Shown: one piece after another, positions 44,125 to 64,000 of the stretch | How the letters are laid out: the number at the start of each line of letters is the position of its first letter | Numbering within the stretch: position 1 is the first letter of the stretch | NCBI GenBank assembly: GCA_051748045.1 | Contig: JBNJGY010000001.1 | Span: 32,001 to 96,000 of the forward strand | From: Thermotogota bacterium | GTDB lineage: Bacteria > Thermotogota > Thermotogae > Petrotogales > Petrotogaceae | DNA: 64,000 bases | Direction of reading: 5' to 3' | Notes under the pieces: generated by a model | The model's database searches: none | Told to the model about the DNA's origin: nothing | The model's input: only the letters and a program-made list of their open reading frames with translations | Program-made: the position numbers and the translations under genes

Positions 44125-44158
44125 AATAATCTCGCATTAAATGCGAGATTATTTTATT
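44120..44158. terminator. Bidirectional terminator
   Basis: AATAAAATAATCTCGCAT-TAA-ATGCGAGATTATTTTATT. Confidence 0.87.
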
Positions 44159-44966: not shown

Positions 44967-45035
44967 TTATCCCCCTCCTTTTTTTATCACATTATATCAT
45001 AATTTTAACTTGAGTTTAACTTGATTTTATTAATC

Positions 45036-45078
45036 AAAAAAAAAAACGAAGCATCTCTTTAAAAGATCGCTTCGTTTT
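45036..45078 (-). terminator. Terminator of the dap/lys operon
   Basis: AAAACGAAGC...GCTTCGTTTT imperfect stem followed by an 11-T run on the minus strand. Confidence 0.8.
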
Positions 45079-45083
45079 AATTA

Positions 45084-48501: not shown

Positions 48502-48513
48502 AGTGAACACTTC

Positions 48514-49212
48514 CTATAATTGTCTTAAACTTGAAATCATCTGTGTTTTAGCTTTTGTTTTTAAATCAATTTTTTTAATTTCTTTTGCTGGAATCCCTGC
48601 AACTAGTGTATTTTCTGGGACATCATTTACAACTACTGAACCAGCAGCTATTACTGAACTTTTACCTACCCTTACTCCTTCAAGGACAACAACATTAGCA
48701 CCAACTAAAACATCGTCTTCAATTATAACGGGATCTGCACTTGGTGGTTCTATAACTCCAGCCAGAACTGTCCCTGCTCCAATATGACAATTTTCTCCCA
48801 CTGTCGCTCTCCCACCTAAAACTACATTCATATCTATCATTGTATTTCTACCGATTTGAGAGCCAATGTTTATAACAGCGCCCATCATTAAAACACACCC
48901 ATCACCTATTTCTACCATATCTCTTATATGAACTCCGGGTTCAATTCTTGCATTATATTTAGAATAATCAGCAAGAGGAATAGCTGAATTTAATCTATCC
49001 ATTTCTATTCTATATTGTTCTAAACTTTCTCCCAATTTATTTTTAATTTCTTCAATTTGCTTATAATCACAAAAAATCACACCTGATTTTTCGTTTCCAT
49101 AATATTCATAATCTTTTAAACCTCTATCTAAATTTACTCCTCTTAAATATAATTTCACAGGAGTTTTTTTCTCTGAATTTGATATAAAATCTATAATTTC
49201 ATTTGAATTCAT
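48514..49212 (-). CDS. dapH: Tetrahydrodipicolinate N-acetyltransferase
   Basis: KKTPVK, ARIEPG and [10 protein letters not shown] motifs plus hexapeptide repeats; ATG 49212 after AGGAG. Confidence 0.93.
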
Positions 49213-49237
49213 TTTTTCTCTCCTTTTAAAAATTAAA

Positions 49238-49891
49238 TTATTTTTTATTAAGTATTTGTTTAAATGTATAAAAACCATTTTCTAAATTAAAAATTTTTTT
49301 TGCACTTAATAATACTCCTTTGGTAAAAGCCTCTCTTGAATATGCTCTGTGAGATATTTTAATTATTTCACCTGTATTTGCAAATTCAATTTCATGTTCT
49401 CCAAATTCTGATCCTAATCTTTTTGAATGTACTTCTTCAATCTTACTATTTAATATTTTCTCCAACAAAATAGCAGTTCCAGAAGGTTTATCTTTTTTAA
49501 ACCTATGATGAGTTTCTGTTATTTCAATATCGTATGTTTCATCAATATAATCATTCATTTTTGCTAATAATTCAGTCATTATGTTAATACCAATAGAGAA
49601 ATTAAAACTTTGAATAATTGGTACTTTTTTAGAAATTTCTTTCATTTTTTCGAAATCTGCATCCTCTAAACCTGTTGTTCCTGTTATGAGTGGAACTTCT
49701 TTTTCTTTAATAATCTTTAATGTCTCTGAAAAAGCCTCTTTTAAAGAAAAATCAATTATTACCTCAGGCTTTTCTATTAGTTCTTCTATTTCAGAATCTT
49801 TTTTATATACCAGTTCATGTCCTTCTTTTGAAAAAAGATCTTGGATCGCTTTTCCCATTTTCCCCGAATATCCAATTAATCCATATTTCAT
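49238..49891 (-). CDS. dapB: 4-hydroxy-tetrahydrodipicolinate reductase
   Basis: GYSGKMG, IDFS, GTTG and [15 protein letters not shown] motifs. Confidence 0.95.
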
Positions 49892-50763
49892 ATAAGTTCC
49901 AACTTTTTCATTTCATTTGCAATTTTTTCTTCTTTTTCTTTTGATAATTTGAATAAAGGTTTTCTTAAATTATTGTTTGATAATCCTATTTGAGACATGG
50001 CATATTTTATTGGAATAGGGTTTACATCAATAAACATCAAGTTCATTAGATCTAAATATTTATAAAATAAATTTTTTGCTTCATTTATTTTACCTTCTAA
50101 AATATTTAAAGTTATTTTTTTCATAGTCTTTGGGGCTAAATTAGAAAAAACTGATATAACTCCATTTCCACCAGATAACATTAATGGTAGAACTTGATCA
50201 TCATTTCCCGATAAAACCTTCATATTTGAACTACATTTATTAATAGTATTAAGAATTTGGCTCATATCTCCGCTTGCTTCTTTAATAGCCTTTATATTTT
50301 CTATTTGAGATAGTTTTTCTGCTGTTTCTGTTTGAATATTAACTCCTGTTCTTGATGGAACATTATATAAAATTATCGGTAAATTAGTTTTACCTGCAAT
50401 ATATTCATAGTTCTTTACTAATCCATCTTGATTTGTTTTATTATAATAAGGAGTAACAATCAACAATCCATTTGCACCGTCTTTTTCAGCTAATTCATTT
50501 AGTTTTAAAATTTTTTCGGTATCATTAGATCCTGTACCTACTATTACAGGTATTTTTTTATTCGCTTTTTCTACTGCTATTTTTGTCAAATCAGTTCTTT
50601 CTTCGAGACTAATAGTTGGAGACTCCCCTGTTGTTCCTAGAACTATCAGAGCGTCTATTCCATTATTTATTTGATATTCTAACAAAGCTTCATATTTAAC
50701 ATAATCTATCTCTCCATTTTCTTTAAATGGAGTTATTAAAGCTGTTCCAACACCATTAAACAT
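49888..50763 (-). CDS. dapA: 4-hydroxy-tetrahydrodipicolinate synthase
   Basis: GTTGE, TPYYNK, LYNVPSRT and IKEASG motifs. Confidence 0.96.
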   Translation of the reverse strand: MFNGVGTALITPFKENGEIDYVKYEALLEYQINNGIDALIVLGTTGESPTISLEERTDLTKIAVEKANKKIPVIVGTGSNDTEKILKLNELAEKDGANGLLIVTPYYNKTNQDGLVKNYEYIAGKTNLPIILYNVPSRTGVNIQTETAEKLSQIENIKAIKEASGDMSQILNTINKCSSNMKVLSGNDDQVLPLMLSGGNGVISVFSNLAPKTMKKITLNILEGKINEAKNLFYKYLDLMNLMFIDVNPIPIKYAMSQIGLSNNNLRKPLFKLSKEKEEKIANEMKKLELI

Positions 50764-50764
50764 A

Positions 50765-51982
50765 TCAAAAACCTCCTAAAATTGTTTTTGTATAATCATT
50801 ATATGTTTCATCTCTTCTGATTTTTCTTATTTTTTTATCTTTGGTATAGAGATATTCAGCATGTCTTAGCTTCCCATTATAATTGAACCCCATTGAATGT
50901 GCATGAGCACCTGTATCATGAATCGCTAATATATCTCCTTCAGTCGTTAATGGTAATTTCCTATTTATTGCAAATTTATCATTATTCTCACAAAGTGAGC
51001 CAACTACATCGTATTCCTCTTTTTCATTAGACTGGAAAGATAAATTAGTAATATGGTGATAGCTTCCATACATTCCAGGTCTCATTAGATCTGACATTGC
51101 TGCATCAACACCTAAATAATTCTTAAATGTCAGTTTTTTCTTTATAACTTTAGTTATTAAATAACCTGATTGTGCAGTTATGTATCTTCCTGATTCTGTA
51201 AATATTTTAGGTTTTTTATCATTAAAAATATTCTTATAATTAGCTTCAATGCTTTTTGCTATATTAGATATATCAACTTTTTGTTCTGGTTTATATGGAA
51301 TACCTATTCCTCCGCCAATATTTATAAAATCAATAATAATTTTAAATTTATTTTGTAAATTTTTTGCAAATTCAAAAATTTCTTTTGTATATGCAGAAAA
51401 TATTTTCGGATCTTTTTCATTTGATACAACCATAGTATGCAAACCAATATTTTTTTTACCTTTTTTAGAAACAAATTCTACAGCCTTTTCGATTTGTTCT
51501 TTAGTTGAGCCAAATTTGGATTCTCTTGAATCTCCTATAATGTCATTTTTTATTCCCCCAGGATTTAAACGAAAACATAATTTATCTGGGATGATATTGT
51601 TTTTACTTAACAAATAAATATCTTCATACCAGTCAATATTTATTACACAATTTTTTTCAATAGCATACTTGTATTCTTTTAATGTTGTTAGATTAGAAGT
51701 GAACATAATATCTTCACCATTAAACCCTGAGTCAAGGGCCAACTGTATTTCGTTAACGCTTGCTGCATCAACACCACAATCATTTTCTTTCATTATTTTT
51801 AGAATATTTGGGTTAGGATTTGCTTTTATGGCAAAATACTGCTTATAATCAACCCATTTAAAGCTTTTTTTTAAACTATTTATTTTTCTTACTATAACTG
51901 ACTCATCATAAATATGAAAAGGAGTACCTTCATTTTCTGAAATCTCAAATATTTTTTGTTCTGGAATAGTTATCCTCTTCAT
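50765..51982 (-). CDS. lysA: Diaminopimelate decarboxylase
   Basis: FAIKAN, SKFG, NIGGG, ESGRY, GSLCENND and MGFNYN motifs. Confidence 0.93.
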   Translation of the reverse strand: MKRITIPEQKIFEISENEGTPFHIYDESVIVRKINSLKKSFKWVDYKQYFAIKANPNPNILKIMKENDCGVDAASVNEIQLALDSGFNGEDIMFTSNLTTLKEYKYAIEKNCVINIDWYEDIYLLSKNNIIPDKLCFRLNPGGIKNDIIGDSRESKFGSTKEQIEKAVEFVSKKGKKNIGLHTMVVSNEKDPKIFSAYTKEIFEFAKNLQNKFKIIIDFINIGGGIGIPYKPEQKVDISNIAKSIEANYKNIFNDKKPKIFTESGRYITAQSGYLITKVIKKKLTFKNYLGVDAAMSDLMRPGMYGSYHHITNLSFQSNEKEEYDVVGSLCENNDKFAINRKLPLTTEGDILAIHDTGAHAHSMGFNYNGKLRHAEYLYTKDKKIRKIRRDETYNDYTKTILGGF

Positions 51983-52950
51983 GAATTATCTCTATTTAGT
52001 TCTATGTGTTTTTTCATAATTCTTACTGCGTTTGTGGCTGCACCAACTCTAACATTATTTGCCATTACCCAAATTAAAAATGTTTTATCGTTTAATTGTC
52101 TTAACCTTGATACATAAGTCATTTTATCATCTTGAATTTCTAAAGGTGTAATTATTTCATCATCGTAAACTACATTTTCTGAATTTGCTATTAAATCACT
52201 TATTAATTGCAAGTTAGTACTTTTTGAAATTTTAAAAGTTATAGATTCAGAATGACCATAAACAACAGGTACCCTTACTGCTGTAGGAATAACTATTATT
52301 TCTTTATCTTCAAAGATTTTTGTTGTTTCATTCACCATTTTCATTTCTTCTGTAGTGAACCCATTTTCTTCGTAATCACCAATTTTTGGAATTATATTTC
52401 TATGAATTATCTTTTCAAAATGCTCTGGTTGATTACTTTCTTTTTCTTGATTAATCAATTCTTGAATACCTTTGTTTCCTGCTCCAGATACAGCTTGATA
52501 TGTAGAGACATTTATCTCTTCTATCTTTATCTGTTTTTGTACATTATTCAAAGCTAAAAGCATTTGAATAGTTGAACAATTAGGATTTGCTATTATTCCT
52601 TTATAACCTTTTATTTTATGACTGTTTATTTCAGGGATAATTAAAGGAATATCATTATCCATTCTAAAAGCAGAAGAATTATCAATAACAACACTTCCCG
52701 CCTTGGCTGCTATTTGTGCAAATTCTTTTGAAACATCTCCCCCAGCAGAAAATAATACATAATCATATTGGTCTTTTAATGATTCTTGTTTTAATTCTTC
52801 AACTTCAATTTCTTTATTCTGAAAGCTTATTAATTCACCTACACTTTTTTTACCTGCATAAAGATCTAAATGATCTATATCTAGTGAAGAAAGTTCATCT
52901 ATAATTTTTCTACCAACTTCTCCTGTTGCTCCTACCACTGCTACTTTCAT
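51979..52950 (-). CDS. asd: Aspartate-semialdehyde dehydrogenase
   Basis: GATGEVG, IDNSSAFRM, NPNCST, TYQAVSGAG, RVPV..GHSE and GAATNA motifs. Confidence 0.96.
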   Translation of the reverse strand: MKVAVVGATGEVGRKIIDELSSLDIDHLDLYAGKKSVGELISFQNKEIEVEELKQESLKDQYDYVLFSAGGDVSKEFAQIAAKAGSVVIDNSSAFRMDNDIPLIIPEINSHKIKGYKGIIANPNCSTIQMLLALNNVQKQIKIEEINVSTYQAVSGAGNKGIQELINQEKESNQPEHFEKIIHRNIIPKIGDYEENGFTTEEMKMVNETTKIFEDKEIIVIPTAVRVPVVYGHSESITFKISKSTNLQLISDLIANSENVVYDDEIITPLEIQDDKMTYVSRLRQLNDKTFLIWVMANNVRVGAATNAVRIMKKHIELNRDNS

Positions 52951-52967
52951 ATTTACACCTCCGGAAA

Positions 52968-52997
52968 ATAAAAAAACTCTCCCAAAAAGGAGAGTTT
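52968..52997 (-). terminator. Expression-platform terminator of the lysine riboswitch
   Basis: Minus strand AAACTCTCC-TTTTTG-GGAGAGTTTTTT lies between the aptamer and the asd RBS. Confidence 0.8.
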
Positions 52998-53021
52998 ATA
53001 ATAAATTCATTTATTATTATT

Positions 53022-53184
53022 TTGACGGCTCTCCACGTTAAACGTGACAGTAGTATAGATATTCACTATACTCCCGGAAAAGAGTTTTGAGTTTCTCTTT
53101 CCCTCGGCAACTTTACCTTTCACATATCTTCATAGCTTTCTCGAGCTCAAATATGTTACTCTTATCAGTCGCGCCTCCGTTCGT
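53022..53184 (-). promoter_or_regulatory. Lysine riboswitch (L-box) aptamer
   Basis: Minus strand ACGGAGGCGCG...AGAGTA...TGAAG...GAAAGG...TGCCGA...ACTGTCAC..GTGGAGAGCCGT matches L-box conserved segments; upstream of asd-lysA-dapA-dapB-dapH-lysC. Confidence 0.93.
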
Positions 53185-53254
53185 TACACTAACTATTTAC
53201 TTATATTCAAAATAACATTTCAAAATTAACTGATGATAAACTTTTTGTTAACAT

Positions 53255-55237
53255 TTAATCTTCAGGGATTATGAAAACTTGATTTGGATATATTAAATTT
53301 GGATTTTCTATATTATTTTTTTCAGCTATATCATTATAATTAACTCCATATATTCTTGATATTTTTAATAACCAATCACCAGATTTTACTGTATATTTTA
53401 AAATTATTTTTTCTGCAAGTTCCTTTATTTCTTCATATGTTAAAGGTACTCTGTTATCTATGGATAAATTCCCTTCTTTAAATATTTTTTCAGCTTTTAT
53501 TCTGTGAATTTTATTCCAGTTATTCCCAGTTATTTTCCAATTTTCATCTGTTTCGCTTTTTATTATTCCATTTTTATAATCAACAATATACTCTTCTATA
53601 AAATCTGTAATGTAGTAATCTTTAAATTTTTCTATGTCTTTTGAACTAGCTAAAAGATTTGGTAATTTGTCTGAAAAAATTTCACCTGAATTTGAAAATT
53701 CATTTTCTGCTCTTGCTGAATTAGTTGCCAATAAATATTTTTTATCATCTAAAATATTATTACTAGCTGAATCTGTTAAATTTTCTATTCTGTTACCAAA
53801 GTCTTTACTAATATTAATTTCAAAATTTAAACCCTTAAAAATATCATATAGTTTATGCGATTTATTAGTTCGGGTAATCGTTAAATGTTCTTTTTCGAAT
53901 TTGTTGTAAAATTCTACAGACCATTCAAGATACTCTTTTAATTGCTTACCCGTTAATTCAACTATGGATAAACTATTCTTTTCTGGATAAAATCTGTTTA
54001 TATATCTTTTTGAAATTTGGTTAGATAATTTGAGATTTTCTACATAAATAGGCGTTGAAGATATTTTCACTTCAGAATCAAATATTTTATTTGCATAATG
54101 AAGTTGAACTTCATTTATCAGGTCAGAAATTTTTGTTGGTTTTAAATGATATGAATCTATTTGGTCTATTTTTTTCTCTTCAAAAAAATCCCCATTAACT
54201 ACTTCTGCAATAATTGATTCTAATTCTTCTATAGATTCTTGATGGTATTCTCTAAATATATTCTCTATACTGTGAAGAGGGAGAATAACTCTATCATCAT
54301 TTTTTACTGGAATCTTTGTAAGTGTTGAATCATCAGTAATATTTGAACCTTCTTTTGTTAATTTATAATCAATTTGATATAAACTTTCAGTAGAATTATT
54401 TATTAAAAACTCTTTTTTAGAATCGTTAAATTTATTAGATATTATAAGTTTATTTTTTTGTTCTTCTTTATTTAATGAGATTAAGATGTCATTCTCTAAA
54501 TTATCTTTTGGATCTAATTTATTATAGAAAGTAATATTATTTAATGTTTCACTTGATCCTGGAGTTAAGAATTTTTCGCTATTTAGATTCAAATCATCTA
54601 TTTTTAAAACATCATTTTCTGATAATAACCATAAATCATATTTTAAATAGTCAAAAGCTTCAAGGAAAGAATCAACTGTTTTATTATTTTGTTTATCTAG
54701 AAAAGTATCTCCAATATTTAATAATATATCCACCTCATTAACTTTATCATCTATTATTTTAGCTAATTGAGAAAAACTACCATCATAATCTTTTTTATCA
54801 TAATCATAATCATATGTTGTGAAATCACCATTAATGTTAGAAGTAATATATAATTTAAAAGAAACATCTATTTCTTCTATTTCTTTATGTGTGTTTTTAT
54901 CTATTTTTTCATTACTTGTGCTATTTTTAGTAATTAGAATATCGGCATTTGTTTCTATCAAATCAATATTTTCTTCATCAGTAGAATTATTCTCTTGATT
55001 TTCATTTTGACCATCACTTTCACTTAAAAGCAAATTTGAAGTTGAATCAGGAGTTATTTCAATTGAATCACCTGGAACAAAATCATCTTCATATATTGTT
55101 TGGGAATTATTTGAATCTTCAATATTATAATTCTGATCAACTTTTTCATCATTATTACCTAAAAATATAAATATCAGGGAAATAATGAGCATCAAAATTA
55201 TAATAAATACTCCCCATATAATATTTTTTTTATTCAT
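53255..55237 (-). CDS. Membrane-anchored 5'-nucleotidase/CpdB-like protein (degenerate metal site) with C-terminal LysM
   Basis: N-terminal TM and N/S/E-rich linker; LYITSNING and IGDTF; C-domain ELTGKQLKEYLEWS and NRIENL; LysM YTVKSGDWLLKIS...NPNLIYPNQ. Confidence 0.75.
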   Translation of the reverse strand: MNKKNIIWGVFIIILMLIISLIFIFLGNNDEKVDQNYNIEDSNNSQTIYEDDFVPGDSIEITPDSTSNLLLSESDGQNENQENNSTDEENIDLIETNADILITKNSTSNEKIDKNTHKEIEEIDVSFKLYITSNINGDFTTYDYDYDKKDYDGSFSQLAKIIDDKVNEVDILLNIGDTFLDKQNNKTVDSFLEAFDYLKYDLWLLSENDVLKIDDLNLNSEKFLTPGSSETLNNITFYNKLDPKDNLENDILISLNKEEQKNKLIISNKFNDSKKEFLINNSTESLYQIDYKLTKEGSNITDDSTLTKIPVKNDDRVILPLHSIENIFREYHQESIEELESIIAEVVNGDFFEEKKIDQIDSYHLKPTKISDLINEVQLHYANKIFDSEVKISSTPIYVENLKLSNQISKRYINRFYPEKNSLSIVELTGKQLKEYLEWSVEFYNKFEKEHLTITRTNKSHKLYDIFKGLNFEINISKDFGNRIENLTDSASNNILDDKKYLLATNSARAENEFSNSGEIFSDKLPNLLASSKDIEKFKDYYITDFIEEYIVDYKNGIIKSETDENWKITGNNWNKIHRIKAEKIFKEGNLSIDNRVPLTYEEIKELAEKIILKYTVKSGDWLLKISRIYGVNYNDIAEKNNIENPNLIYPNQVFIIPED

Positions 55238-55377
55238 AATACACCTCCTGATTTCTTATAATAATTTCATATAATATTTGACTAAAATAAATTATACATT
55301 ATAATAGTAACGTAAATCTTTATTCTATAAAATTATACCATATATGAAAAATGATTTTATACAGGAGGAATAAAAAA

Positions 55378-56025
55378 ATGAATAGTTTTTTGGATGAAAG
55401 GCTAGAATTAACAAACGCTTGTAAAAAAATAGCAAATGATAATTTAGTAAAAGGTACTTGGGGTAATTTTTCAATAAAAGTTAAAGATAAAATAATAATA
55501 ACACCATCTGGTTATTCTTATGAACTGATGACTCCAAACGACCTAGTTATAATTAATATGAAAGGTAATATAATCGAAGGTGACAGAGTTCCTTCTTCTG
55601 AATGGATGATGCATTCAGAAATTTACCAAAAAAGACAAGATGTAAATATTATTCTACATACACATCCAACATATTCTTCAATCGCTTCTGTGTCTTTAAA
55701 TGAAATACCTTCTTTGATAGAGGACAGTGCTATGATTTTAGGACCAAAAATTAATGTAACTGAATATAAGTTACCTGGTTCAAAAGATTTAGCTGAGGAA
55801 ACAGCAAAAAAATTAGGAGAAAATAACGCTGTTATTATGAGAAATCACGGGTTAGTCACTGTAGGTAATTCTTTAAATGAAGTAATATCAGCAGCTCATA
55901 TTGTTGAAAAAAACGTTATGATTTATATCGAAGCAACAAAATTAGGTGGGAAAATTCATTATATCTCTGATAACGACCTAAAAATGCTTAGAGAAAAATA
56001 TTTTAAATCATATAGACAAAAATAA
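55378..56025 (+). CDS. Class II aldolase/adducin family protein (FucA/MtnB-like)
   Basis: GNFS, TPSG, PSSE..MH, HTHP and NHG motifs; ATG 55378 after AGGAGG; upstream TTGACT-16-TATAAT (55278-55305). Confidence 0.9.
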   Translation: MNSFLDERLELTNACKKIANDNLVKGTWGNFSIKVKDKIIITPSGYSYELMTPNDLVIINMKGNIIEGDRVPSSEWMMHSEIYQKRQDVNIILHTHPTYSSIASVSLNEIPSLIEDSAMILGPKINVTEYKLPGSKDLAEETAKKLGENNAVIMRNHGLVTVGNSLNEVISAAHIVEKNVMIYIEATKLGGKIHYISDNDLKMLREKYFKSYRQK

Positions 56026-56048
56026 CAAGGGGTATTAAGCCCCTTGTT
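56024..56048. terminator. Terminator hairpin between the convergent aldolase and ABC genes
   Basis: AACAAGGGG-TATTAAG-CCCCTTGTT. Confidence 0.75.
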
Positions 56049-57825
56049 TTATAAATTTGAATTGAGATAAGTATAAATCGTAATAATCGTTTCTCATTTC
56101 AATTAGTTCTTCATGAGTTCCCATTTCGCTAATTTTTCCATCTTTAATATAAATAATTCTGTCTACATCTCTAATGGTTGATAGTCTATGTGCAATTACA
56201 AAACTAGTTCTATTTTTTAGTAGTTTTTCGATTCCTAATTGTACCAATCTTTCAGTTTTTGTATCAATATTTGATGTAGCCTCATCTAAAATTAATATTT
56301 TGGGATCAGCTAATAATGCTCTTGCTAAAGATATTAACTGTCTTTGCCCAACAGACAACCTTGAGCCTCTTTCGTTTACTTCAGTCTCATAACCTTTTTC
56401 TAAACTCATCACGAAATCATGTAATCCTACGGTTTTAGAAGCTTTTATTATTTCTTCTTTTGTGGCATCTAATTTGCCGTATTTAATATTTTCATAAATA
56501 GTTGTAGAAAATAAAAATGTATCTTGTAGCATAATTCCCATATGGGTTCTCAAATTTTCCAAATCTATATCTCTTAAATCGTGACCATCTAAGAATATAC
56601 TACCTTGTGTGGGGTCATAAAACCTGGATATCAAATTTACCATAGTAGTCTTTCCAGCTCCTGTAGGACCTACAAATGCTATAGATTCACCTGGTTTAAC
56701 CTTCAAATTTATATTTTTTAGAACTTGAGTATCTTTATCATAACTAAAGCTAACATTTCTAAAATCTAATTCTCCATCTATGTTGTCTAATCTTTGTACA
56801 CCATTTTTGTTGTTTTCAACAACAGGTTTTATATCTAATATTTCAAATATTCTATCTGTAGCTGCAAAACTGGTTATTAAAACATTATAAAAGTTTGCTA
56901 TGTTCCAAATAGGTCTCCAAAATTTTGTTATATACCAAGTAAAAGCGAATATTTCTCCTATTGTAATTAAATTTTGACCTACAAGTCCAAAACTATACCA
57001 ATATATGGCTATTAACCCCAAACCATAGGATAGTTCAATAAGAGGTCCAAATTTATATTGTAGTCTTGCTGCATGAATAAAGGAATCGACAGCATTACCA
57101 ACATAACCTCTAAAATTATTTTTTGTAAAACTCTCTGCTGTAAAAGATTGTACTACTTTTATACCTGAGAACGTTTCATGGGTATAGGCATTTAAATTAG
57201 ATCTCTTTTTTCTATAGTTCTCCCATCGTTTTCTCCCTATTATCTGTATTACAAAAAGTGCCAAAAAAAGTGGGGGCATAACCATCATTGTTATACCAGT
57301 TAGTTGTGCGTTCATTGAAACCATAATAATTACAACAGATATAACTGTAATCACTTCAGGAATTAAACTTGTAACTAAAGAGTTAAAAAATTGCTGTAAA
57401 GAGTTGATATCTCCCATAATCCTTGCTAAAATTTTTCCTACAGGTCTTTCATCAAAAAAATTGAAAGATAATTTTTGAATATGATTGTAAAGATCATGCC
57501 TTATGTTTACAACTATATCGTTACTAATCTCTCCCATTTTGATCATTCTCATTTTTGAGACCCACATAGCAAATAAATTAACCAGTAACATCCCTATACT
57601 CAACCAAACTAATCCTATAACATTTTCTTGGACTATATAATTATCTATTGCCAATTTCAACATAAAAGGATTTAAAAGTTCAACACCAATAACAAAAAGC
57701 ATCATCATGGATACCAAAAATGTTTTTAATTTATATGGTTTTAAATAAGATATCAATATTTTAATTATCTCAATATTTGATTTTCTCTTTGTATTTTCAT
57801 CTTGTTTTGTAGCGTTTAGACTCAT
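56035..57825 (-). CDS. Heterodimeric ABC exporter, half-transporter 2 (canonical Walker B, degenerate signature)
   Basis: TMD plus NBD with GPTGAGKT, LSVGQRQ, ILDEAT and AHR. Confidence 0.93.
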   Translation of the reverse strand: MSLNATKQDENTKRKSNIEIIKILISYLKPYKLKTFLVSMMMLFVIGVELLNPFMLKLAIDNYIVQENVIGLVWLSIGMLLVNLFAMWVSKMRMIKMGEISNDIVVNIRHDLYNHIQKLSFNFFDERPVGKILARIMGDINSLQQFFNSLVTSLIPEVITVISVVIIMVSMNAQLTGITMMVMPPLFLALFVIQIIGRKRWENYRKKRSNLNAYTHETFSGIKVVQSFTAESFTKNNFRGYVGNAVDSFIHAARLQYKFGPLIELSYGLGLIAIYWYSFGLVGQNLITIGEIFAFTWYITKFWRPIWNIANFYNVLITSFAATDRIFEILDIKPVVENNKNGVQRLDNIDGELDFRNVSFSYDKDTQVLKNINLKVKPGESIAFVGPTGAGKTTMVNLISRFYDPTQGSIFLDGHDLRDIDLENLRTHMGIMLQDTFLFSTTIYENIKYGKLDATKEEIIKASKTVGLHDFVMSLEKGYETEVNERGSRLSVGQRQLISLARALLADPKILILDEATSNIDTKTERLVQLGIEKLLKNRTSFVIAHRLSTIRDVDRIIYIKDGKISEMGTHEELIEMRNDYYDLYLSQFKFIKQGA

Positions 57826-57826
57826 A

Positions 57827-59563
57827 TTAGATCACCTCGTTTGCAAAAAAGCTAATATCTTCAAAATCTTTGAATTGATCTTTGTAAATTTTATAATATT
57901 CTCCTTTTTTGTCTACTAATTCATCATGTGTTCCCATTTCAAAAATTTCCCCATCTTTTAAATATATTATTTTATCTGCATTTTTAACTGCTGAAATTCT
58001 GTGTGCTATTATAAAAGTTGTTATATTTTTGTTGCTATCTTTAATATTTTTTAGTAGTTCATATTCTGTATCCATATCCAATGCACTTGTAGCATCATCC
58101 AAGACAATCATTCTCGATTTTTTGGCTAAGGCCCTTGCTATTGTCATTCTTTGTTTTTGACCACCAGATAACCCAACGCCTCTTTCTCCAATTAAAGTGT
58201 TGTATTTTTTATTCATTTTTTCTACAAACTCTTCCACACAGGAAATTTTTGCAACTTCTACTAATTCTTTTTGGCTTAATTCATTATTTCCCATCTTTAT
58301 ATTTTCCTCTACAGTTTCTGAGAAAAGAAAGCTGTCTTGAAAAATGTATGAAATATTATCTCTAAGGTTTTTTAAATTGATTGATCTTATATCATTTCCG
58401 TCAATTAATATATTCCCTTTTGTAACGTCATAAAATCTACCAATTAAATTAACTAATGATGTTTTACCTGAACCTGTTTCTCCCATTATGGCGACTGTTT
58501 CACCAGGGTTAATTTCTAAATTAATCTTTTTTAAAACATAATCTTCATCATATTTTAGGTAAACATCATGAAAAATAATTTTCCCTTTTTCTATTTTTTC
58601 ACCTAAGTCATTTAATATTTCTGGTTTATTCGACATTATTCTATCAATTTTTTTTGCTGATGTTGTTCCAAGAGATATCATATTTGTTAATAACCCCATC
58701 ATTCTCATTGGCCAAATCAACATCCATACGTATTGAGTAAAAGCTACTAAAACACCTAAAGATATTTGTTCATTAATGACAAAAGCCCCGCCAAAAACAA
58801 CTAACAAAACTATTGTCATATTACCCAGAAATTCCATCACCGAGAATAATGATCCAAATATTTTTGTCCTTTCTATGTTCAGTTCATAATTTTTTTTATT
58901 CATATCTAAAAATTTTAATGTTTCATGTTTTTCTCTTGCAAAAGCTTTCACCAATCTAACTCCAGCTATATTTTCTTGAGCTGTAGTATTTAACTTTGCA
59001 GCATGATCACTTATTTTATCGTAAACTTTAGATACTTTTTGTCTTAATTTCACTGCAACATAAGCTATTAAAGGCATTCCAGCCAGTGTTATCAAAGCTA
59101 ACTTCCAGTTTAATGAAAATAATATAAAAGAAGCCACAGAAAAATATATGATATTTTCAACAAAAACAGCTAATGCAAATCCGAGCATATCCCAAACATT
59201 TTCCGCATCTTGTCCTATTCTAGACATTAATTCTCCAGTATTTTGTTTGTCAAAGAATTTAAAATCCATCTTATGTATATGTTTAAACAAATCATTTCTA
59301 ATATCTCCTAAAATTTGAGTAGCTATATAGTCATAAGTAAATTCTTTAAAATATCCAGAAAAAACTCTAACTACTGTCATTATAGCTATACCTATTAACA
59401 CAGTTTTTAAAGATTCTACACTATTATTACCAAGAGCTTCATCTATAAACATTTTACTCAACATTGGCCAAAACATATCTGAAATGATAAAGGCCATCAT
59501 AGATAAAACAGCGACAAATAACAACAATTTATAATTTTTATAATATTTTAGTATTTTTAACAC
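57827..59563 (-). CDS. Heterodimeric ABC exporter, half-transporter 1 (canonical signature, Walker B E-to-D)
   Basis: TMD plus NBD with GETGSGKT, LSGGQKQ, IVLDDAT and AHR; GTG start with GGGGTG RBS 7 nt upstream. Confidence 0.93.
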   Translation of the reverse strand: MLKILKYYKNYKLLLFVAVLSMMAFIISDMFWPMLSKMFIDEALGNNSVESLKTVLIGIAIMTVVRVFSGYFKEFTYDYIATQILGDIRNDLFKHIHKMDFKFFDKQNTGELMSRIGQDAENVWDMLGFALAVFVENIIYFSVASFILFSLNWKLALITLAGMPLIAYVAVKLRQKVSKVYDKISDHAAKLNTTAQENIAGVRLVKAFAREKHETLKFLDMNKKNYELNIERTKIFGSLFSVMEFLGNMTIVLLVVFGGAFVINEQISLGVLVAFTQYVWMLIWPMRMMGLLTNMISLGTTSAKKIDRIMSNKPEILNDLGEKIEKGKIIFHDVYLKYDEDYVLKKINLEINPGETVAIMGETGSGKTSLVNLIGRFYDVTKGNILIDGNDIRSINLKNLRDNISYIFQDSFLFSETVEENIKMGNNELSQKELVEVAKISCVEEFVEKMNKKYNTLIGERGVGLSGGQKQRMTIARALAKKSRMIVLDDATSALDMDTEYELLKNIKDSNKNITTFIIAHRISAVKNADKIIYLKDGEIFEMGTHDELVDKKGEYYKIYKDQFKDFEDISFFANEVI

Positions 59564-59607
59564 TTTCCATCACCCCGATTTTTCTCTTCTATTTTTTATC
59601 CACCAAT

Positions 59608-59685
59608 CTATATTAAAGATATGATTTCGTAATACTCTTTTTTATTTTTTACCTTCATATTATTATTTTTTTGATTATTTTTCAT
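59608..59685 (-). CDS. Micro-ORF C, 25 aa: MKNNQKNNNMKVKNKKEYYEIISLI
   Basis: Manual translation; RBS GGGGTGG precedes ATG; C-terminus paralogous to micro-ORF B. Confidence 0.7.
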   Translation of the reverse strand: MKNNQKNNNMKVKNKKEYYEIISLI

Positions 59686-59725
59686 AATTACCACCCCATG
59701 TTTTAGCTTCGTCTGATAGTTTGGA

Positions 59726-59806
59726 TTAAATTAAAGAAACAACTTCAAAATATGATTTTTTCTCTTCTTGTTTAGCTTGATTGTTTTGTATGTTTTTCTT
59801 TTTCAT
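59726..59806 (-). CDS. Micro-ORF B, 26 aa: MKKKNIQNNQAKQEEKKSYFEVVSLI
   Basis: Manual translation; RBS AAAGGGGGTGA precedes ATG; C-terminus paralogous to micro-ORF C. Confidence 0.72.
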   Translation of the reverse strand: MKKKNIQNNQAKQEEKKSYFEVVSLI

Positions 59807-59832
59807 GATTTCACCCCCTTTGTGACATAATT

Positions 59833-59868
59833 CTAACTAACAAAACTCATCTCTAATTTTTTTGACAT
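59833..59868 (-). CDS. Micro-ORF A, 11 aa: MSKKLEMSFVS
   Basis: Manual translation; RBS GGAGGTG 7 nt upstream; first ORF after terminator 2. Confidence 0.55.
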   Translation of the reverse strand: MSKKLEMSFVS

Positions 59869-59888
59869 TTTATTACACCTCCAATTTA

Positions 59889-59922
59889 TAAAAATAAAGC
59901 CATGGCTTTATTAGCCATGGCT
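59889..59922 (-). terminator. Leader terminator 2
   Basis: Minus strand AGCCATGGCT-AATAA-AGCCATGGCT-TTATTTTT (arms at 59913-59922 and 59898-59907). Confidence 0.75.
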
Positions 59923-59993
59923 GATTTAGTTTGTTTTATCATTCGATACTATTATCCTACCTTTATAAAACATAGAAAATAATAATAATCTAT

Positions 59994-60025
59994 AAAACAA
60001 AAGCCATGGCTGGATAGCCATGGCT
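59994..60025 (-). terminator. Leader terminator 1
   Basis: Minus strand AGCCATGGCT-ATCC-AGCCATGGCT-TTTGTTTT (arms at 60016-60025 and 60002-60011). Confidence 0.78.
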
Positions 60026-60042
60026 CGAATATATAGAAATAA

Positions 60043-60159
60043 CTAGATTATTTCTTTTCTACTTCGAGGCAAAGCTATCCCATGATTTGATTTTAATATA
60101 CCGCACATATTAAAACTAACTCTTAATTTGCCGGTGTTTACAACTGCTAAATTAATCAT
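60043..60159 (-). CDS. Leader peptide, 38 aa: MINLAVVNTGKLRVSFNMCGILKSNHGIALPRSRKEII
   Basis: Manual translation; AAAGGAGG RBS 8 nt upstream; the 3' end is complementary to terminator 1. Confidence 0.72.
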   Translation of the reverse strand: MINLAVVNTGKLRVSFNMCGILKSNHGIALPRSRKEII

Positions 60160-60219
60160 GATATTGCCTCCTTTTTTAAAATATTTTATCACTTACAATT
60201 TACACTGTTTATATTTCTT

Positions 60220-60258
60220 GTTTTATACGTTATAGTTACTATAGAGTAAAGTATAACG
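60220..60258 (-). promoter_or_regulatory. Candidate MerR-type promoter/operator for the leader-ABC transcript
   Basis: Minus strand TTTACT (60250-60245), then dyad TATAGT-N-ACTATA (60231-60243) in the spacer, then TAAAAC at 19 bp (or TATAAA at 17 bp). Confidence 0.5.
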
Positions 60259-60274
60259 GATAATTTTTATCTAT

Positions 60275-61009
60275 TTAAACTTCATTGTAATATTCGAAAT
60301 ATTTTATTTCTAAATCAAAGTTATTTTTAATATAATCTCCAAGTTTTTTAATTCCAAAAGTTTCTGTTGCATAATGCCCAGCATGGATAAAGTTCACACC
60401 CATATCTTTTGCTATATCTCTAGTATGTTCTTCTACAGACCCTGTTATATAAGTATCTATTTCTGGGTCTAATTTTTCAATGAAATTAGCCCCTCCTCCT
60501 GAAACAATTGCTATATTTTCGGCGTATTCTCTATTTTGATAGCATAATAAGCTTTGGTTTTTTTGCAATATTTCTTTTAAGTTTTTTGTTAATTTTTGAA
60601 ATGGAACTTTTTTAGGCATTCTACCTTTAAAACCAAATGAAAATTTATCTACTATTTCTATACCTAGTTTCCTCAATAATTCTGAGTTATTTCCATATTC
60701 CAAACTCGCATCTAATGGCAAATGATATCCCATTAAAGATATATCATTTTTTATGAGGTTTTCAATTCTTATTTTTTTATAACCAGTTATATCTATTACA
60801 CCTTTTCCAAAAAGACCATGATGAACCAATATAACGTCTGGATTCCACTCTTTTATTTTTTCAAAAAAAGTGTTATTATAAGATACTCCTAAAGCAATCT
60901 TTTTTATTTCATGTTTTCCTTCTACCTGAATACCATTTTTACAAAAATCCTCAAAATCTTCTACATTTAATATTTCATTTAAATGTGATTCTAATTGAAA
61001 TAAATTCAC
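60275..61009 (-). CDS. Nif3-like dinuclear metal center hexameric protein (YbgI/DUF34)
   Basis: DFCKNGIQVEG, LVHHG, YHLPLD, GNN, VSGGG and AGHYATE motifs. Confidence 0.93.
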   Translation of the reverse strand: MNLFQLESHLNEILNVEDFEDFCKNGIQVEGKHEIKKIALGVSYNNTFFEKIKEWNPDVILVHHGLFGKGVIDITGYKKIRIENLIKNDISLMGYHLPLDASLEYGNNSELLRKLGIEIVDKFSFGFKGRMPKKVPFQKLTKNLKEILQKNQSLLCYQNREYAENIAIVSGGGANFIEKLDPEIDTYITGSVEEHTRDIAKDMGVNFIHAGHYATETFGIKKLGDYIKNNFDLEIKYFEYYNEV

Positions 61010-61013
61010 TTAA

Positions 61014-61505
61014 TCACCTCTTATATCCTGTAATATTTCTCAGGAATTCATATCTTTTCTTTTTATCCTCTTCTTCTTCCACACCTTTTGGAGAATAACC
61101 ATCAACAACTCCCATAATTCCCCGTCCTTGCTCGGTTTCAGCTACTATTATCTGTAAAGGGTTGGCTGTGGCTGCAAAGATATTGACAATTTCTTGTACA
61201 TTCATTAGTTGATTTTTAATACTTATTGGAAAACCATTTTTAATTATCAGTACAAAAATATGCCCTGCTCCAATTTTTTTTGCATTATCAATTGCGGTTT
61301 CAACCAAGTTATCGTTATTCCCCTCATATCTTATTAAACATGGTCCTGATGCTTCATTAAATGCGAATCCAAACTCAAGATTTGGATTAACTGTAGAAAT
61401 AACTTCATATACATCTTCAACTGTTTTTATGAAATGTGATTGTCCAACTATGACATTTGTATCTTCTGGAATTTTTAAATCAACAACATCAAAATTTATG
61501 TTCAT
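61014..61505 (-). CDS. Adenosine-specific kinase family protein (DUF355)
   Basis: [26 protein letters not shown] and [10 protein letters not shown] motifs; ATG 61505 after GGGAGG. Confidence 0.88.
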
Positions 61506-61660
61506 TAATATCCCTCCCATAAAATTCTTCTTATATATATTTTAATTAATAATAATATAAAAATCAAGAAAGATTAATATTTAACATAAGATATTATTTT
61601 TTATTTAATTATTTGATGTTATAATTTAGATGAGTTTGTTAACCCAACAGGGGGTGGAGT

Positions 61661-62890
61661 ATGAAGATAGGTAAGTTTGCAAAAAAAAATAATTTAACTG
61701 TTGACACTATAAGATATTATGTAGAACTAGGACTTCTATTACCTGAAAAGGTTAATAATCAATTTTCTTTTGATGAGAAATGCCAAAATGATTTAGAAGA
61801 AATAATCAATTTAAAAAATATGAGGTTTTCAATTTCTCAAATTCAAAGTATTTTTTCAACAAGAAGATTTACTAAATTAATAAATGATGAGGAACTAAAT
61901 TATTATATATCTTTTTTTGAAAATAAAAAAAATGAACTTATAAAAGAAAAAAAAGAAATCGATAAATCAATTGATAAAATTGACAAAAAGATTGAAGATA
62001 TTAAAAATAGTTATGAAAAAAGAAACGTAGATTTGGGTATTCCTGTTTCTTTTTTAAGTAATTTATCTTGTCCTAAATGTAATAAATCTTTGAATTTAGT
62101 TAAAGGAAATATAGAAAATAATCAAATTTTTAATGGAGAACTCAAATGTAAGTGCGGATATGAAGCAAAAATTGAAGATGGAATTTTAATCACAGAGAAC
62201 GCAGAAACATATATGCCTGAAAACTTAGAAAAAGATAACCCAGGAAATATTTTTGTCAAAAAAACTAATATGTCTTTTGCGAATTTAATATATAAAGGTA
62301 TGTCTTGGATTTATAAAAGATTAAACCAAATAGATTTAAAAAATATAAATATTCTAGAAATTGGAACTGGTTCAGGTTTTTTCTTAAAAAAATTGATTGA
62401 GTCATTAGATGATACTTCTGTTTACATAGCAGTTGATAACAACCTAGAGTTTTTAAAATCTGCAAAAAAGTATTTACAAGCTATCGGTAAAGAAGCCAAC
62501 ATAGTGTTCATAGCTTGTGACTTTAAAGAAATCCCTTTACAAAATGATACTTGTGATATTTTACTAGATGTATATGGGACAGCTGACGACTCTTTGAATA
62601 AAGATTTTTACCCTATAAGAGATACTAAACACCTTTTAAAAAACAAAGGCTTTTGGTATGGAACATATATACATTTCAATGACAATTCAAAAACCTTGAC
62701 TACAATAAGCAGAGAAGCTAGAGAAAAATATAAGTCAGATTTCATAAGAAAATCTTTCGCAAGCAATGGATTTGAAGAAATAGAATCTAGTTTTTTAGGG
62801 AAAGCTACAAAATATGGAGAATCAGAGCCTTTTATTGTTGATGGAGACATAGTTAATCATTGGGGATTTGTTTGTAGAAAATATATATAA
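61661..62890 (+). CDS. MerR-family regulator fused to a Cys4 zinc ribbon and a class I SAM-methyltransferase-like domain
   Basis: MKIGKFAK...DTIRYYVELGLL HTH, coiled coil, CPKC...CKC and ILEIGTGSG. Confidence 0.85.
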   Translation: MKIGKFAKKNNLTVDTIRYYVELGLLLPEKVNNQFSFDEKCQNDLEEIINLKNMRFSISQIQSIFSTRRFTKLINDEELNYYISFFENKKNELIKEKKEIDKSIDKIDKKIEDIKNSYEKRNVDLGIPVSFLSNLSCPKCNKSLNLVKGNIENNQIFNGELKCKCGYEAKIEDGILITENAETYMPENLEKDNPGNIFVKKTNMSFANLIYKGMSWIYKRLNQIDLKNINILEIGTGSGFFLKKLIESLDDTSVYIAVDNNLEFLKSAKKYLQAIGKEANIVFIACDFKEIPLQNDTCDILLDVYGTADDSLNKDFYPIRDTKHLLKNKGFWYGTYIHFNDNSKTLTTISREAREKYKSDFIRKSFASNGFEEIESSFLGKATKYGESEPFIVDGDIVNHWGFVCRKYI

Positions 62891-62918
62891 TATTCTTTTA
62901 ATATGAGGAGTAATAATT

Positions 62919-63617
62919 ATGTATGATAATAATGATGAGTTTAAAAATATGATACGTAAAATCTTGAAAGAAAATCCAGAGCTAAAAAATTTTAACTTAG
63001 ATTTTATAAAGGATGTCAATCCAGAAGATATTGATGAAATTATAGAAAAATTAAAAGTAGCCTCTCAAAAATTTACAGAAGCAGAATATTCTGTAAAAGA
63101 TGATGTCGATAAAACTTTATCTTTTGAGGCGAAGGATCTTTCAATCAATTATGAAACCTATTTGAAAACTATTATGATCTTTCCCTTTGCTTTAGCAGTA
63201 GGAGAAGATATTTTAGAAGACGTTCCAACAGAAGGAGAATTACATGGTGAGTTTTTTGGTAAAAAAGTTGATTTTGAATATGATAATATTTATGAATTAA
63301 TATCTATAAAGAAAAATGTGGCAATGAAAATTGGCAAACTTATACGTAAAAATTATCCTGATTTTTTGGAGTTCAGAGAAGATATAAAATCTTATTTAGA
63401 AAAAATAACTAATTCATATTTAAAAGCATTTGGTTTTGAAGACAGTTTTGAAATATCTGATATTAGAGAGTTTAATATGTTAGTTAGATTAAAGCCTAAA
63501 GATTATGAAAAAATAGAAGATTTTTATGAGAATCATTTGGATTCTGAAGAAATTGAAAAATTTAAAATATTCAAAGCCTATTTAATCACTGAATTTTCTA
63601 TAGCTGTAATTGATTGA
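62919..63617 (+). CDS. Hypothetical acidic soluble protein
   Basis: 232 aa ORF with GAGGAG RBS; no motif recognised. Confidence 0.7.
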   Translation: MYDNNDEFKNMIRKILKENPELKNFNLDFIKDVNPEDIDEIIEKLKVASQKFTEAEYSVKDDVDKTLSFEAKDLSINYETYLKTIMIFPFALAVGEDILEDVPTEGELHGEFFGKKVDFEYDNIYELISIKKNVAMKIGKLIRKNYPDFLEFREDIKSYLEKITNSYLKAFGFEDSFEISDIREFNMLVRLKPKDYEKIEDFYENHLDSEEIEKFKIFKAYLITEFSIAVID

Positions 63618-63660
63618 TACAAATAAAACACAATATTCATAAAATTTAAATATTTACCAC

Positions 63661-63689
63661 TTGATTTCTACTTTTATATTTGCTATAAT
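63661..63689 (+). promoter_or_regulatory. Sigma70 promoter of the csp gene
   Basis: TTGATT (63661-63666), 17 bp, TATAAT (63684-63689) with extended TG. Confidence 0.7.
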
Positions 63690-63753
63690 ATAAATAAGTA
63701 ACTAACTGCATGCTACATTTGGTAGCGCGGTTGTAAAAAATGGAGGTATTCAC

Positions 63754-63951
63754 GTGAAAGGTACAGTTAAATGGTTTGACGCAAAAAAAGGTTATGGTTT
63801 CATCACAGGAGAAGACGGTAAAGATGTATTTGTTCATTTCTCAGCAGTAGACATGGACGGATATAAAAAATTAGAAGAAAACCAAGAAGTAGATTTTGAA
63901 ATTGTTGAAGGCGAAAAAGGACCACAAGCTTCAAACGTAACAGTTAGATAA
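63754..63951 (+). CDS. csp: Cold-shock protein (CSD)
   Basis: KGTVKWF, RNP1 KGYGFI, RNP2 VFVHFS and GPQA motifs; GTG start with GGAGG RBS. Confidence 0.97.
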
Positions 63952-64000
63952 ATCTAACCATAATCCGCCTATTAAGGCTTAAATAAGAGTTGCTGTTTTT

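Follow-up and report, generated by a model that had tools for sequence, protein, structure and literature searches.

A candidate leader-peptide attenuator with two identical-stem terminators upstream of a TM287/288-type exporter operon in a Thermotogota bacterium

The exporter locus and its palindromes

We examined the surroundings of a four-times-repeated palindrome in a stretch of 64,000 nucleotides from a Thermotogota bacterium (GenBank assembly GCA_051748045.1, contig JBNJGY010000001.1, positions 32,001 to 96,000), hereafter called the window and numbered from its first letter. On the minus strand, an adenosine-kinase-like gene and a NIF3 gene are followed by a promoter-like site, a short leader open reading frame (ORF), a hairpin with a U tract (terminator 1, T1), a spacer, a second such hairpin (terminator 2, T2), three small ORFs, and two genes coding for ATP-binding cassette (ABC) half-transporters, ABC1 and ABC2. 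A first-pass annotation, made from the letters alone, had described the two hairpins and proposed that one trigger opens both; it had not seen the leader ORF before the element, nor the three small ORFs and the BmrCD/TM287-288-type exporter after it. Judged from sequence, the element is probably a leader-peptide attenuator of the kind described for Bacillus subtilis bmrB, equipped with two terminators and placed before an exporter of the BmrCD/TM287-288 type.

The palindrome AGCCATGGCT is found at exactly 59898-59907, 59913-59922, 60002-60011 and 60016-60025, as the first-pass annotation had reported, and nowhere else in the window, where 0.02 copies would be expected and none of 100 shuffles contained at least four. 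No copy with one mismatch exists in the 64 kb, and the eight further matches at two mismatches are at chance level (12 in all versus 9.6 expected). Read on the minus strand, T1 (60002-60025) consists of arm 1a (60025-60016), the loop AUCC (60015-60012) and arm 1b (60011-60002), forming 10-11 pairs, and is followed by the U tract TTTGTTTTAT (60001-59992), while T2 (59898-59922) consists of arm 2a (59922-59913), the loop AAUAA (59912-59908) and arm 2b (59907-59898), forming 10 pairs, and is followed by TTATTTTTAT (59897-59888), the first five bases of which are complementary to the T2 loop. With 6 G-C pairs each and a U-rich tail, both hairpins show the sequence features of an intrinsic (Rho-independent) terminator in a hairpin scan, and they rank at the top of the terminator-like sites of positions 44001-64000 (13 found, 5.1 expected); in the surrounding 2.2 kb, three such sites were found against 0.5 expected. 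The hairpins and T tracts of the first-pass annotation are thus in place, and both hairpins look like genuine intrinsic terminators.

The two terminators are separated by a 79-nt spacer, and a 166-nt element comprising them folds 6.2 standard deviations better than its shuffles. Its minimum free energy (MFE) fold is fully nested: arm 1a pairs with arm 2b, then arm 1b and its U tract with an A-rich tract and arm 2a, and an inner hairpin closes the structure. When the element was compared with the Rfam 15 covariance models, the sole match was to a microRNA model at chance level (24.7 bits versus 83), and at gathering scores the whole window yielded a lysine riboswitch and one tRNA, both elsewhere, and no family for the leader.

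A scan of species genomes provided five loci for comparison (L001 to L005), one close and four distant. The close one, L001, is from a metagenome-assembled genome labelled uncultured Thermotogaceae; its ABC1 is 93% identical to that of the window, and the two loci are collinear over 8.5 kb at 85.7% nucleotide identity. In L001 the four arms, both loops, the first U tract and the antiterminator described below are unchanged.

The first-pass annotation had allowed that the motif could be a common dispersed repeat, in which case a palindromic repeat or miniature mobile element (REP/BIME- or MITE-like) would be present here by chance. The 129-nt element is indeed, as a whole, a long imperfect inverted repeat, and its outer flanks, 17 nt upstream of arm 1a and 17 nt downstream of arm 2b, agree by eye at 14 of 17 positions. 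However, all four copies in the 64 kb are at this locus, with no near-copies; those of L001 occupy the same place, and none was found elsewhere in its 8.5 kb or in L002 to L005; and phage sequences gave no match, with plasmids giving only five chance-level AT-rich matches outside the element. A dispersed repeat is therefore not borne out within these sequences, and we consider this explanation extremely improbable.

Leader ORF, antiterminator and downstream genes

The promoter-like site of the leader (60183-60211, minus strand), as predicted by a consensus scan, consists of TAAACA and TAAAAT separated by 17 nt, with a TG one base before the second hexamer; it agrees with the consensus at 9 of 12 positions, apart from the TG, and differs in L001 by a single base of the first hexamer. 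The Shine-Dalgarno region (60164-60173) precedes a putative ORF of 38 codons plus stop taken from the ORF list (60043-60159, minus strand; MINLAVV...RKEII), with AAGGAGG located 7 nt upstream of the ATG. Its stop codon is at 60045-60043 and T1 begins at 60026, leaving T1 outside the coding region. In L001 the ORF has the same length, frame, start and stop, and 29 of 38 residues are identical. The peptide matches no family in NCBIfam, and a word-based search of the protein collection returned two candidates, which are the peptides of the window and of L001 themselves; by inspection, it has no run of a single regulatory codon. Two other frames, crossing the hairpins, were considered as small ORFs, one of 31 codons beginning in arm 1a and one of 18 codons across T2 (read by eye), and neither is kept in L001.

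Codons 27-33 of the leader ORF contain a segment, AT (60063-60080, minus strand), which forms an inverted repeat with the beginning of T1 (60012-60029), namely the 5′ flank UUCG, arm 1a and the loop AUCC, and which is identical in L001 at all 18 positions. AT and its target can form 15 Watson-Crick pairs out of 18, plus one G-U pair, a value reached by none of 20000 shuffles of the 246 nt upstream and by none of 1260 window pieces, with a maximum of 13 in other 246-nt pieces. The first-pass supposition that a leader antiterminator captures arm 1a is therefore supported, and as a sequence feature this antiterminator is statistically solid. Within AT, the heptamer UUGCCUC can pair with GAGGCAA (60170-60164) of the Shine-Dalgarno region, which would constitute an anti-antiterminator. 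Between AT and T1, a predicted 9-bp hairpin (60035-60055), identical in L001, has the leader stop codon in its loop region. The core of the antiterminator agrees with the AGCCATGGCT palindrome at 7 of 10 positions, and the sequences on either side of it are reverse complements of those flanking arm 1a; repeated duplication of a single short palindromic module may have given rise to the whole switch (60029-59881).

Ribosomes were simulated as masked stretches in equilibrium folding of the leader. In the MFE fold of a transcript ending at arm 1b, the Shine-Dalgarno region pairs with AT, in the window and in L001 alike, and T1 forms with a probability of 0.96 in the naked leader of the window. 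With a ribosome mask placed at codons 8 to 39, T1 likewise forms at 0.91-0.97 (window, 37 °C). Once the start region is masked, the antiterminator prevails in the window, with a probability of AT pairing with 1a of 0.90 at 37 °C and 0.74 at 60 °C; in L001 it attains 0.89 only with about 60 nt masked. The AT:1a and T1 folds differ in free energy by no more than about 1 kcal/mol. The predicted logic thus resembles that of a classical attenuator with three alternative folds.

The leader is followed by three small ORFs on the minus strand, all of them with strong ribosome-binding sites and with counterparts at 3198-3459 of L001. The first (59833-59868; 11 codons, MSKKLEMSFVS) is preceded by GGAGGTG and differs in L001 by two residues; the second (59726-59806; 26 codons, ending in SYFEVVSLI) has 25 of 26 residues identical in L001, with three synonymous changes and one replacement; and the third (59608-59685; 25 codons from the ATG, ending in EYYEIISLI) shows an in-frame 3-nt indel and a Y to F change in its C-terminal motif. 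The predominance of synonymous changes in the second and the in-frame indel in the third make the small ORFs look like real coding sequences; they have no family match in NCBIfam. The second and third have lysine/asparagine-rich N-terminal parts and share the C-terminal motif. They could be counterparts of bmrX of the B. subtilis operon, act as further stalling sensors, or encode exported peptides.

The two genes that follow code for ABC half-transporters of 578 aa (57827-59563, minus strand; TM287/BmrC (YheI)-like, with Pfam ABC_membrane and ABC_tran) and 596 aa (56035-57825, minus strand; TM288/BmrD (YheH)-like, by a Pfam-type domain match and a structure-chain match). The best half-size chain in the PDB list for ABC1 is TM287 of Thermotoga maritima (3qf4_A, 2e-95), with YheI, which is BmrC of B. 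subtilis, at 5e-87, and that for ABC2 is TM_0288 of T. maritima (3qf4_B, 3e-119), with YheH, which is BmrD, at 6e-96; overall, double-length eukaryotic ABCB transporters outscore the half-size chains for both. No minus-strand promoter-like site was found between T1 and the ABC start codon (59563) at the threshold of the scan, and the next ones, at 59569-59540 and 59524-59496, lie across or past that codon.

These findings bear on a simpler explanation, in which T1 and T2 simply close the adenosine-kinase-like/NIF3 operon as plain tandem terminators, transcription of the ABC genes starts from a separate promoter, and neither the leader ORF nor the antiterminator has a function. It is true that the hairpins follow NIF3 on its strand and that no terminator separates them from it, and tandem terminators are common at operon ends. 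Yet the complementarity of the antiterminator to its target is far in excess of chance and is entirely kept in L001, where the frame, start and stop of the leader ORF are also kept; the gap before the ABC start codon lacks a promoter-like site at the scan's threshold; and the homologous Clostridiaceae ABC loci, described below, also have a leader ORF and a terminator. We judge this explanation improbable.

Another possibility, offered by the first-pass annotation as its alternative, is that the palindromes are protein-binding sites: DNA operators for a dimeric regulator, arranged as two site pairs 14 and 15 bp apart and used by a roadblock or loop-forming repressor. A hairpin does not require arms that are perfectly self-complementary, whereas a dimeric DNA-binding protein would select for just that, and a protein with a MerR domain is encoded about 1.7 kb away. 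On the other hand, no regulator is linked to the site, the palindromes come after both the promoter-like site and the leader ORF, and an operator would not predict a U tract after each pair in the direction of transcription or an upstream segment complementary to arm, flank and loop. We found no support for this alternative and regard it as quite improbable; even when it is added to the operon-end terminators and the dispersed repeat, the three together are still unlikely.

Conservation and possible coupling of the two terminators

Within the spacer, the A tract ATAAAACAAA (59930-59939, minus strand) complements the T1 U tract perfectly over 10 nt and ends 7 nt before arm 2a, as the first-pass annotation had pointed out; among 100000 shuffles of the 69-nt spacer, 0.13% contain a match this long, as do 18 of 9133 window pieces of that size. 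Together with the arms, the two tracts allow arm 1b and its U tract to pair, as a zipper-like helix, with the A tract and arm 2a, with the 7-nt stretch CTAAATC (59923-59929) bulged out. In L001, 9 of 10 positions of the A tract are kept, the change being at the end of the helix that adjoins arm 1b, as are 6 of 7 positions of the bulged stretch. The remaining 52 nt of the spacer (59940-59991), which can form a hairpin, are identical at only 28 positions. The first-pass annotation had also noted that the inner spacer pairs with the help of G-U wobbles, which holds for the window (-9.5 kcal/mol, z -2.2; 2.9% of shuffles score as well) and not for L001, where the inner pairing adopts another register; the registers being different, no compensatory changes between the two sequences are supported.

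Other roles for the spacer were considered and set aside. If the interior were subject to inversion, in the manner of an inverton-like switch, L001 might match in reverse complement, but it matches directly at 28 of 52 positions and in reverse complement at 19 (16.5 by chance). The consensus scan revealed no promoter inside the spacer on the minus strand and one weak site on the plus strand, and a TG before a -10-like hexamer at the A tract, seen by eye, is lost in L001.

We compared these segments with the neutral expectation. Four-fold degenerate sites differ between the window and L001 at 76 of 159 in ABC1 and at 33 of 62 in NIF3 (0.48-0.53), setting the neutral divergence at about one half, and the spacer interior, with 24 differences in 52 nt, has diverged at the neutral rate. 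By contrast, the region from AT to the end of the T1 U tract (60080-59992) shows two differences in 89 nt, and the A tract with the following 7 nt shows 2 in 17 (a hand-computed binomial probability at 0.48 of about 0.002). From codon 25 of the leader ORF to its stop, there is no synonymous change in the 13 codons with unchanged residues, compared with third-position differences, among unchanged codons, of 0.28-0.30 in ABC1 and NIF3 and 0.12 in ABC2 (hand-computed binomial at 0.29, about 0.01), indicating that the constraint on the leader 3′ codons acts on RNA. Codons 1-24 contain eight replacements and two synonymous changes and no frame shift or stop, a pattern that suits a leader whose peptide sequence matters little. 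Sequence comparison and calculation thus establish the elements themselves, their beyond-chance complementarity, their conservation in one relative, and the order of the favored folds described below.

In the three distant Clostridiaceae loci (L002 to L004), ABC1 is 47-48% identical to that of the window, and directly upstream of the ABC gene each has a ribosome-binding site, an ORF 24-34 codons long, and a hairpin followed by a U tract (leader coordinates: L002, 3140-3345; L003, 3310-3470; L004, 3330-3475). In L003 and L004, the leader Shine-Dalgarno region and the 3′ end of the ORF are connected by a helix of 11-13 bp. In this exporter family, control by leader peptides may be widespread. 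In L002, two strong tandem hairpins are present, both with U tracts; they had been overlooked by our terminator scan, the rule of which takes the longest stem.

Based on these features, we propose that the four palindromes would be the stems of two duplicated Rho-independent terminators in the leader of the exporter operon, which would act as a ribosome-sensed attenuator of six segments: (1) the Shine-Dalgarno/start region, (2) AT, (3) arm 1a, (4) arm 1b with its U tract, (5) the A tract with arm 2a, and (6) arm 2b. In the OFF register (1:2, 3:4, 5:6), AT would be held by the Shine-Dalgarno region or covered by a smoothly translating ribosome, so that T1 would form and most transcripts would end there; in those leaking past a folded T1, no free arm 1b would be available, and T2 would form and end the transcript. 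In the ON register (2:3, 4:5), a ribosome halted on or close to the leader start would uncover AT, which would capture arm 1a, flank and loop included; if the parallel with bmrB holds, a translation-blocking drug could be what keeps the ribosome there. T1 would be prevented, and the freed arm 1b and its U tract would zip onto the A tract and arm 2a before arm 2b is transcribed, delaying T2 long enough for the polymerase to pass. The scheme presumes that the leader ORF is translated, that an inducing signal acts on it, that termination does occur, and, above all, that the 4:5 pairing persists kinetically.

The folding calculations address this last step. In an RNA ending at arm 2a, the probability of 1b pairing with 2a is 0.96-0.98, in the window and in L001, at 37 and 60 °C. 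The MFE fold of the 421-nt leader corresponds to the ON register, with AT on 1a, arm 1b and the U tract on the A tract and 2a, and a small 2b hairpin built on pairing of the T2 loop with its U tract. T2 is nonetheless favored at equilibrium once arm 2b exists, so that coupling could work only as a kinetic trap. Along direct paths computed with findpath at 37 °C, the barriers are about 10 kcal/mol from the zipper helix to T2 and 10-13 kcal/mol from a folded T1 to the zipper, which, with an assumed prefactor of 1e6-1e7 per second, gives lifetimes of about 1 second or more, which could be enough for the state of T1 to decide that of T2. The pairing of a freed arm 1b with arm 2a, as the first-pass annotation proposed, is thus predicted for the interval before 2b is made and does not carry over to equilibrium afterwards; whether one trigger would open both terminators depends on kinetics, and the kinetic estimates allow either result.

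Several observations weigh against coupling. Once arm 2b has been made, T2 is preferred by 0.6-1.8 kcal/mol and forms at 0.68-0.86; given AT on 1a, the zipper holds in 20-26% of cases in the window and 6-15% in L001 (37-70 °C), and the 7-nt bulge is, by the folding model, a weakness of the zipper. The barriers, which depend on findpath and on the assumed rate prefactor, drop to about 8.7 kcal/mol at 60 °C, and the folds are separated by less energy than the uncertainty of the loop parameters. L001 keeps T1 (0.89) and does not flip when one initiating ribosome is present, and its inner spacer hairpin is no better than shuffles (z -0.5). The two hairpins of L002 have arms that by inspection are not cross-complementary, showing that leaders of this family can have a second terminator that is not coupled. 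Any direct duplication of a hairpin makes 1b and 2a complementary, which is no evidence on its own, and the self-palindromy of the arms is unneeded and unexplained by the coupling model. The conservation argument, although the arms and most of the A tract are kept, draws on two sequences, in which arms, U tract and AT are invariant and offer no covariation, and a weak promoter within small ORF 1 may lie beyond the reach of a consensus scan.

The leader could instead be a leader-peptide attenuator with T2 as an uncoupled back-up, which would stop a fixed fraction of the transcripts that pass T1 and lower basal and induced expression alike, with another role or none for the U:A helix. Such an arrangement agrees with T2 forming in 68-86% of transcripts at equilibrium even with AT holding 1a and with the tandem terminators of L002, and stacked independent layers are known in this operon type, as in the Rae1 cleavage within bmrX of B. 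subtilis (PMC10351889). It does not account for the T1 U tract having a perfect complement of 10 nt, found in so few shuffles, and gives no reason why the A tract and the next 7 nt should be kept beside 52 nt that drift neutrally; furthermore, with conserved genes behind it and no later promoter-like site, a terminator that is strong and constitutive would waste most induced transcripts. An uncoupled T2 seems to us possible, if somewhat doubtful.

The folding calculations point both ways, and the case for coupling depends chiefly on the conserved U:A helix; we place the whole model, including zipper or domino coupling of both terminators, slightly short of an even chance. Its fuller statement describes a shift-register attenuator in which one ribosome-sensed antiterminator would open two identical serial terminators, the freed 3′ arm capturing the next 5′ arm through a conserved zipper helix and leakage past a folded T1 being caught by T2; it would have been built by duplication of a 10-nt palindromic module, with five copies including the degenerate one in AT, and would control the Thermotogae-type counterpart of TM287/288. 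To this reading we assign a probability of roughly 0.4.

If coupling is true, serial terminators would multiply the tightness of the OFF state at no cost to induced expression, providing a simple natural design for low leak and large dynamic range that could be copied by designers of RNA switches; if it is false, the element would be an ordinary attenuator with a duplicated back-up terminator. In addition, the control of BmrCD-type exporters by leader peptides would reach beyond Bacillus, into a lineage labelled Thermotogaceae and, in a simpler version, into Clostridiaceae. The TM287/288 family is mainly known from solved structures, and we know of no natural substrate for TM287/288; the leader would offer a handle on the inducers, and perhaps the cargo, of the family.

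A few observations concern the wider neighborhood. From about 58070 to 56670, covering the 3′ end of ABC1 and most of ABC2, identity with L001 is 88-100% per 100-column block, in most blocks at least 95%, and four-fold sites of ABC2 differ at only 0.20, versus 0.48-0.53 in ABC1 and NIF3, which suggests recent recombination between the window and L001 lineages within the transporter genes. The beginning of a 660-residue 5′-nucleotidase/LysM protein lies at 55237-54900 (minus strand); its N-terminal part and the preceding intergenic stretch are the most divergent from L001, at 61-70% per 100 columns, with an insertion. The lysine riboswitch is found at 53018-53187 (minus strand, 104.7 bits), and the operon below it comprises aspartate-semialdehyde dehydrogenase, diaminopimelate-decarboxylase-like, DapA, DapB and DapH-like genes. 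On the plus strand, 61661-62890 codes for a 409-residue protein with an N-terminal MerR-type DNA-binding domain and a methyltransferase domain; its gene is transcribed divergently from the adenosine-kinase-like/NIF3 genes.

Relation to known attenuators

In the trp-type attenuator of Escherichia coli, successive segments pair in one of two registers according to the position of a ribosome on the leader ORF. The leader described here would likewise have two pairing registers depending on ribosome position, but it differs in having six segments and two terminators, and its likely signal is ribosome arrest rather than amino acid shortage. Tandem intrinsic terminators at gene ends also place two units of hairpin and U tract in series about 100 nt apart; here, by contrast, the units belong to a 5′ leader, their arms are identical and self-palindromic, and a conserved helix links the first U tract to an A tract. 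A record-level survey of literature on tandem terminators with attenuators or on TM287 leader peptides yielded no description of two coupled terminators, and the matches listed for the AGCCATGGCT 10-mer in full-text literature concern unrelated, mostly eukaryotic topics.

The closest functional parallel is bmrB-bmrCD of B. subtilis. PMC4191407, the discussion of which also describes four-segment leader-peptide attenuators, reports ribosome-mediated attenuation with terminator, antiterminator and anti-antiterminator folds, shown experimentally, with lincomycin, erythromycin and chloramphenicol as inducers. Between bmrB and bmrC is bmrX, a cryptic ORF of 26 codons in which cleavage by Rae1 shuts off leak (PMC10351889). 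The two systems share a short leader ORF upstream of a heterodimeric ABC exporter of the same family, YheI and YheH being among the PDB matches; small ORFs between the attenuator and the first ABC gene; and, by prediction in our case, an intrinsic terminator with alternative antiterminator and anti-antiterminator folds and an extra layer against leak. They differ in that the terminator of bmrB is described as lying inside the coding region (PMC4191407), whereas both terminators here follow the leader stop codon. The terminators here also number two, with identical stems, where bmrB has one; three small ORFs, of 11, 26 and 25 codons, take the place of the single bmrX; and the host appears to be a relative of Thermotogae and not a Bacillus.

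The topology of the putative coupling is that of the zipper-type attenuator cATT of plasmid pLS20, in which the 3′ arm of an upstream hairpin complements the 5′ arm of the terminator and a central stem can extend and block both hairpins; attenuation by this topology was shown experimentally and occurs on related conjugative plasmids (PMC13401043). Both have an upstream stem-loop, a central stem-loop and a downstream terminator, and two conformations of similar free energy, and the defining feature is present here, arms 1b and 2a being perfect complements across the U:A helix and inner hairpin, with the extended stem appearing in the MFE fold of the 166-nt element. The upstream hairpin of cATT, however, is weak (-6.4 kcal/mol) and is described there as no terminator, whereas ours is a strong one that would be set by the leader ORF. 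The cATT antiterminator forms by default (PMC13401043); in our folds T2 is favored at equilibrium with 2b present, and the kinetic estimates leave room for either conformation. Finally, cATT precedes conAn1 of a conjugation operon, as opposed to small ORFs and an ABC exporter, the four arms here are identical palindromes, and the two elements have no sequence relationship. Overall, with a parts list in common with bmrB-bmrCD and a topology in common with pLS20, the element appears to vary known kinds of attenuator and does not represent a new kind.

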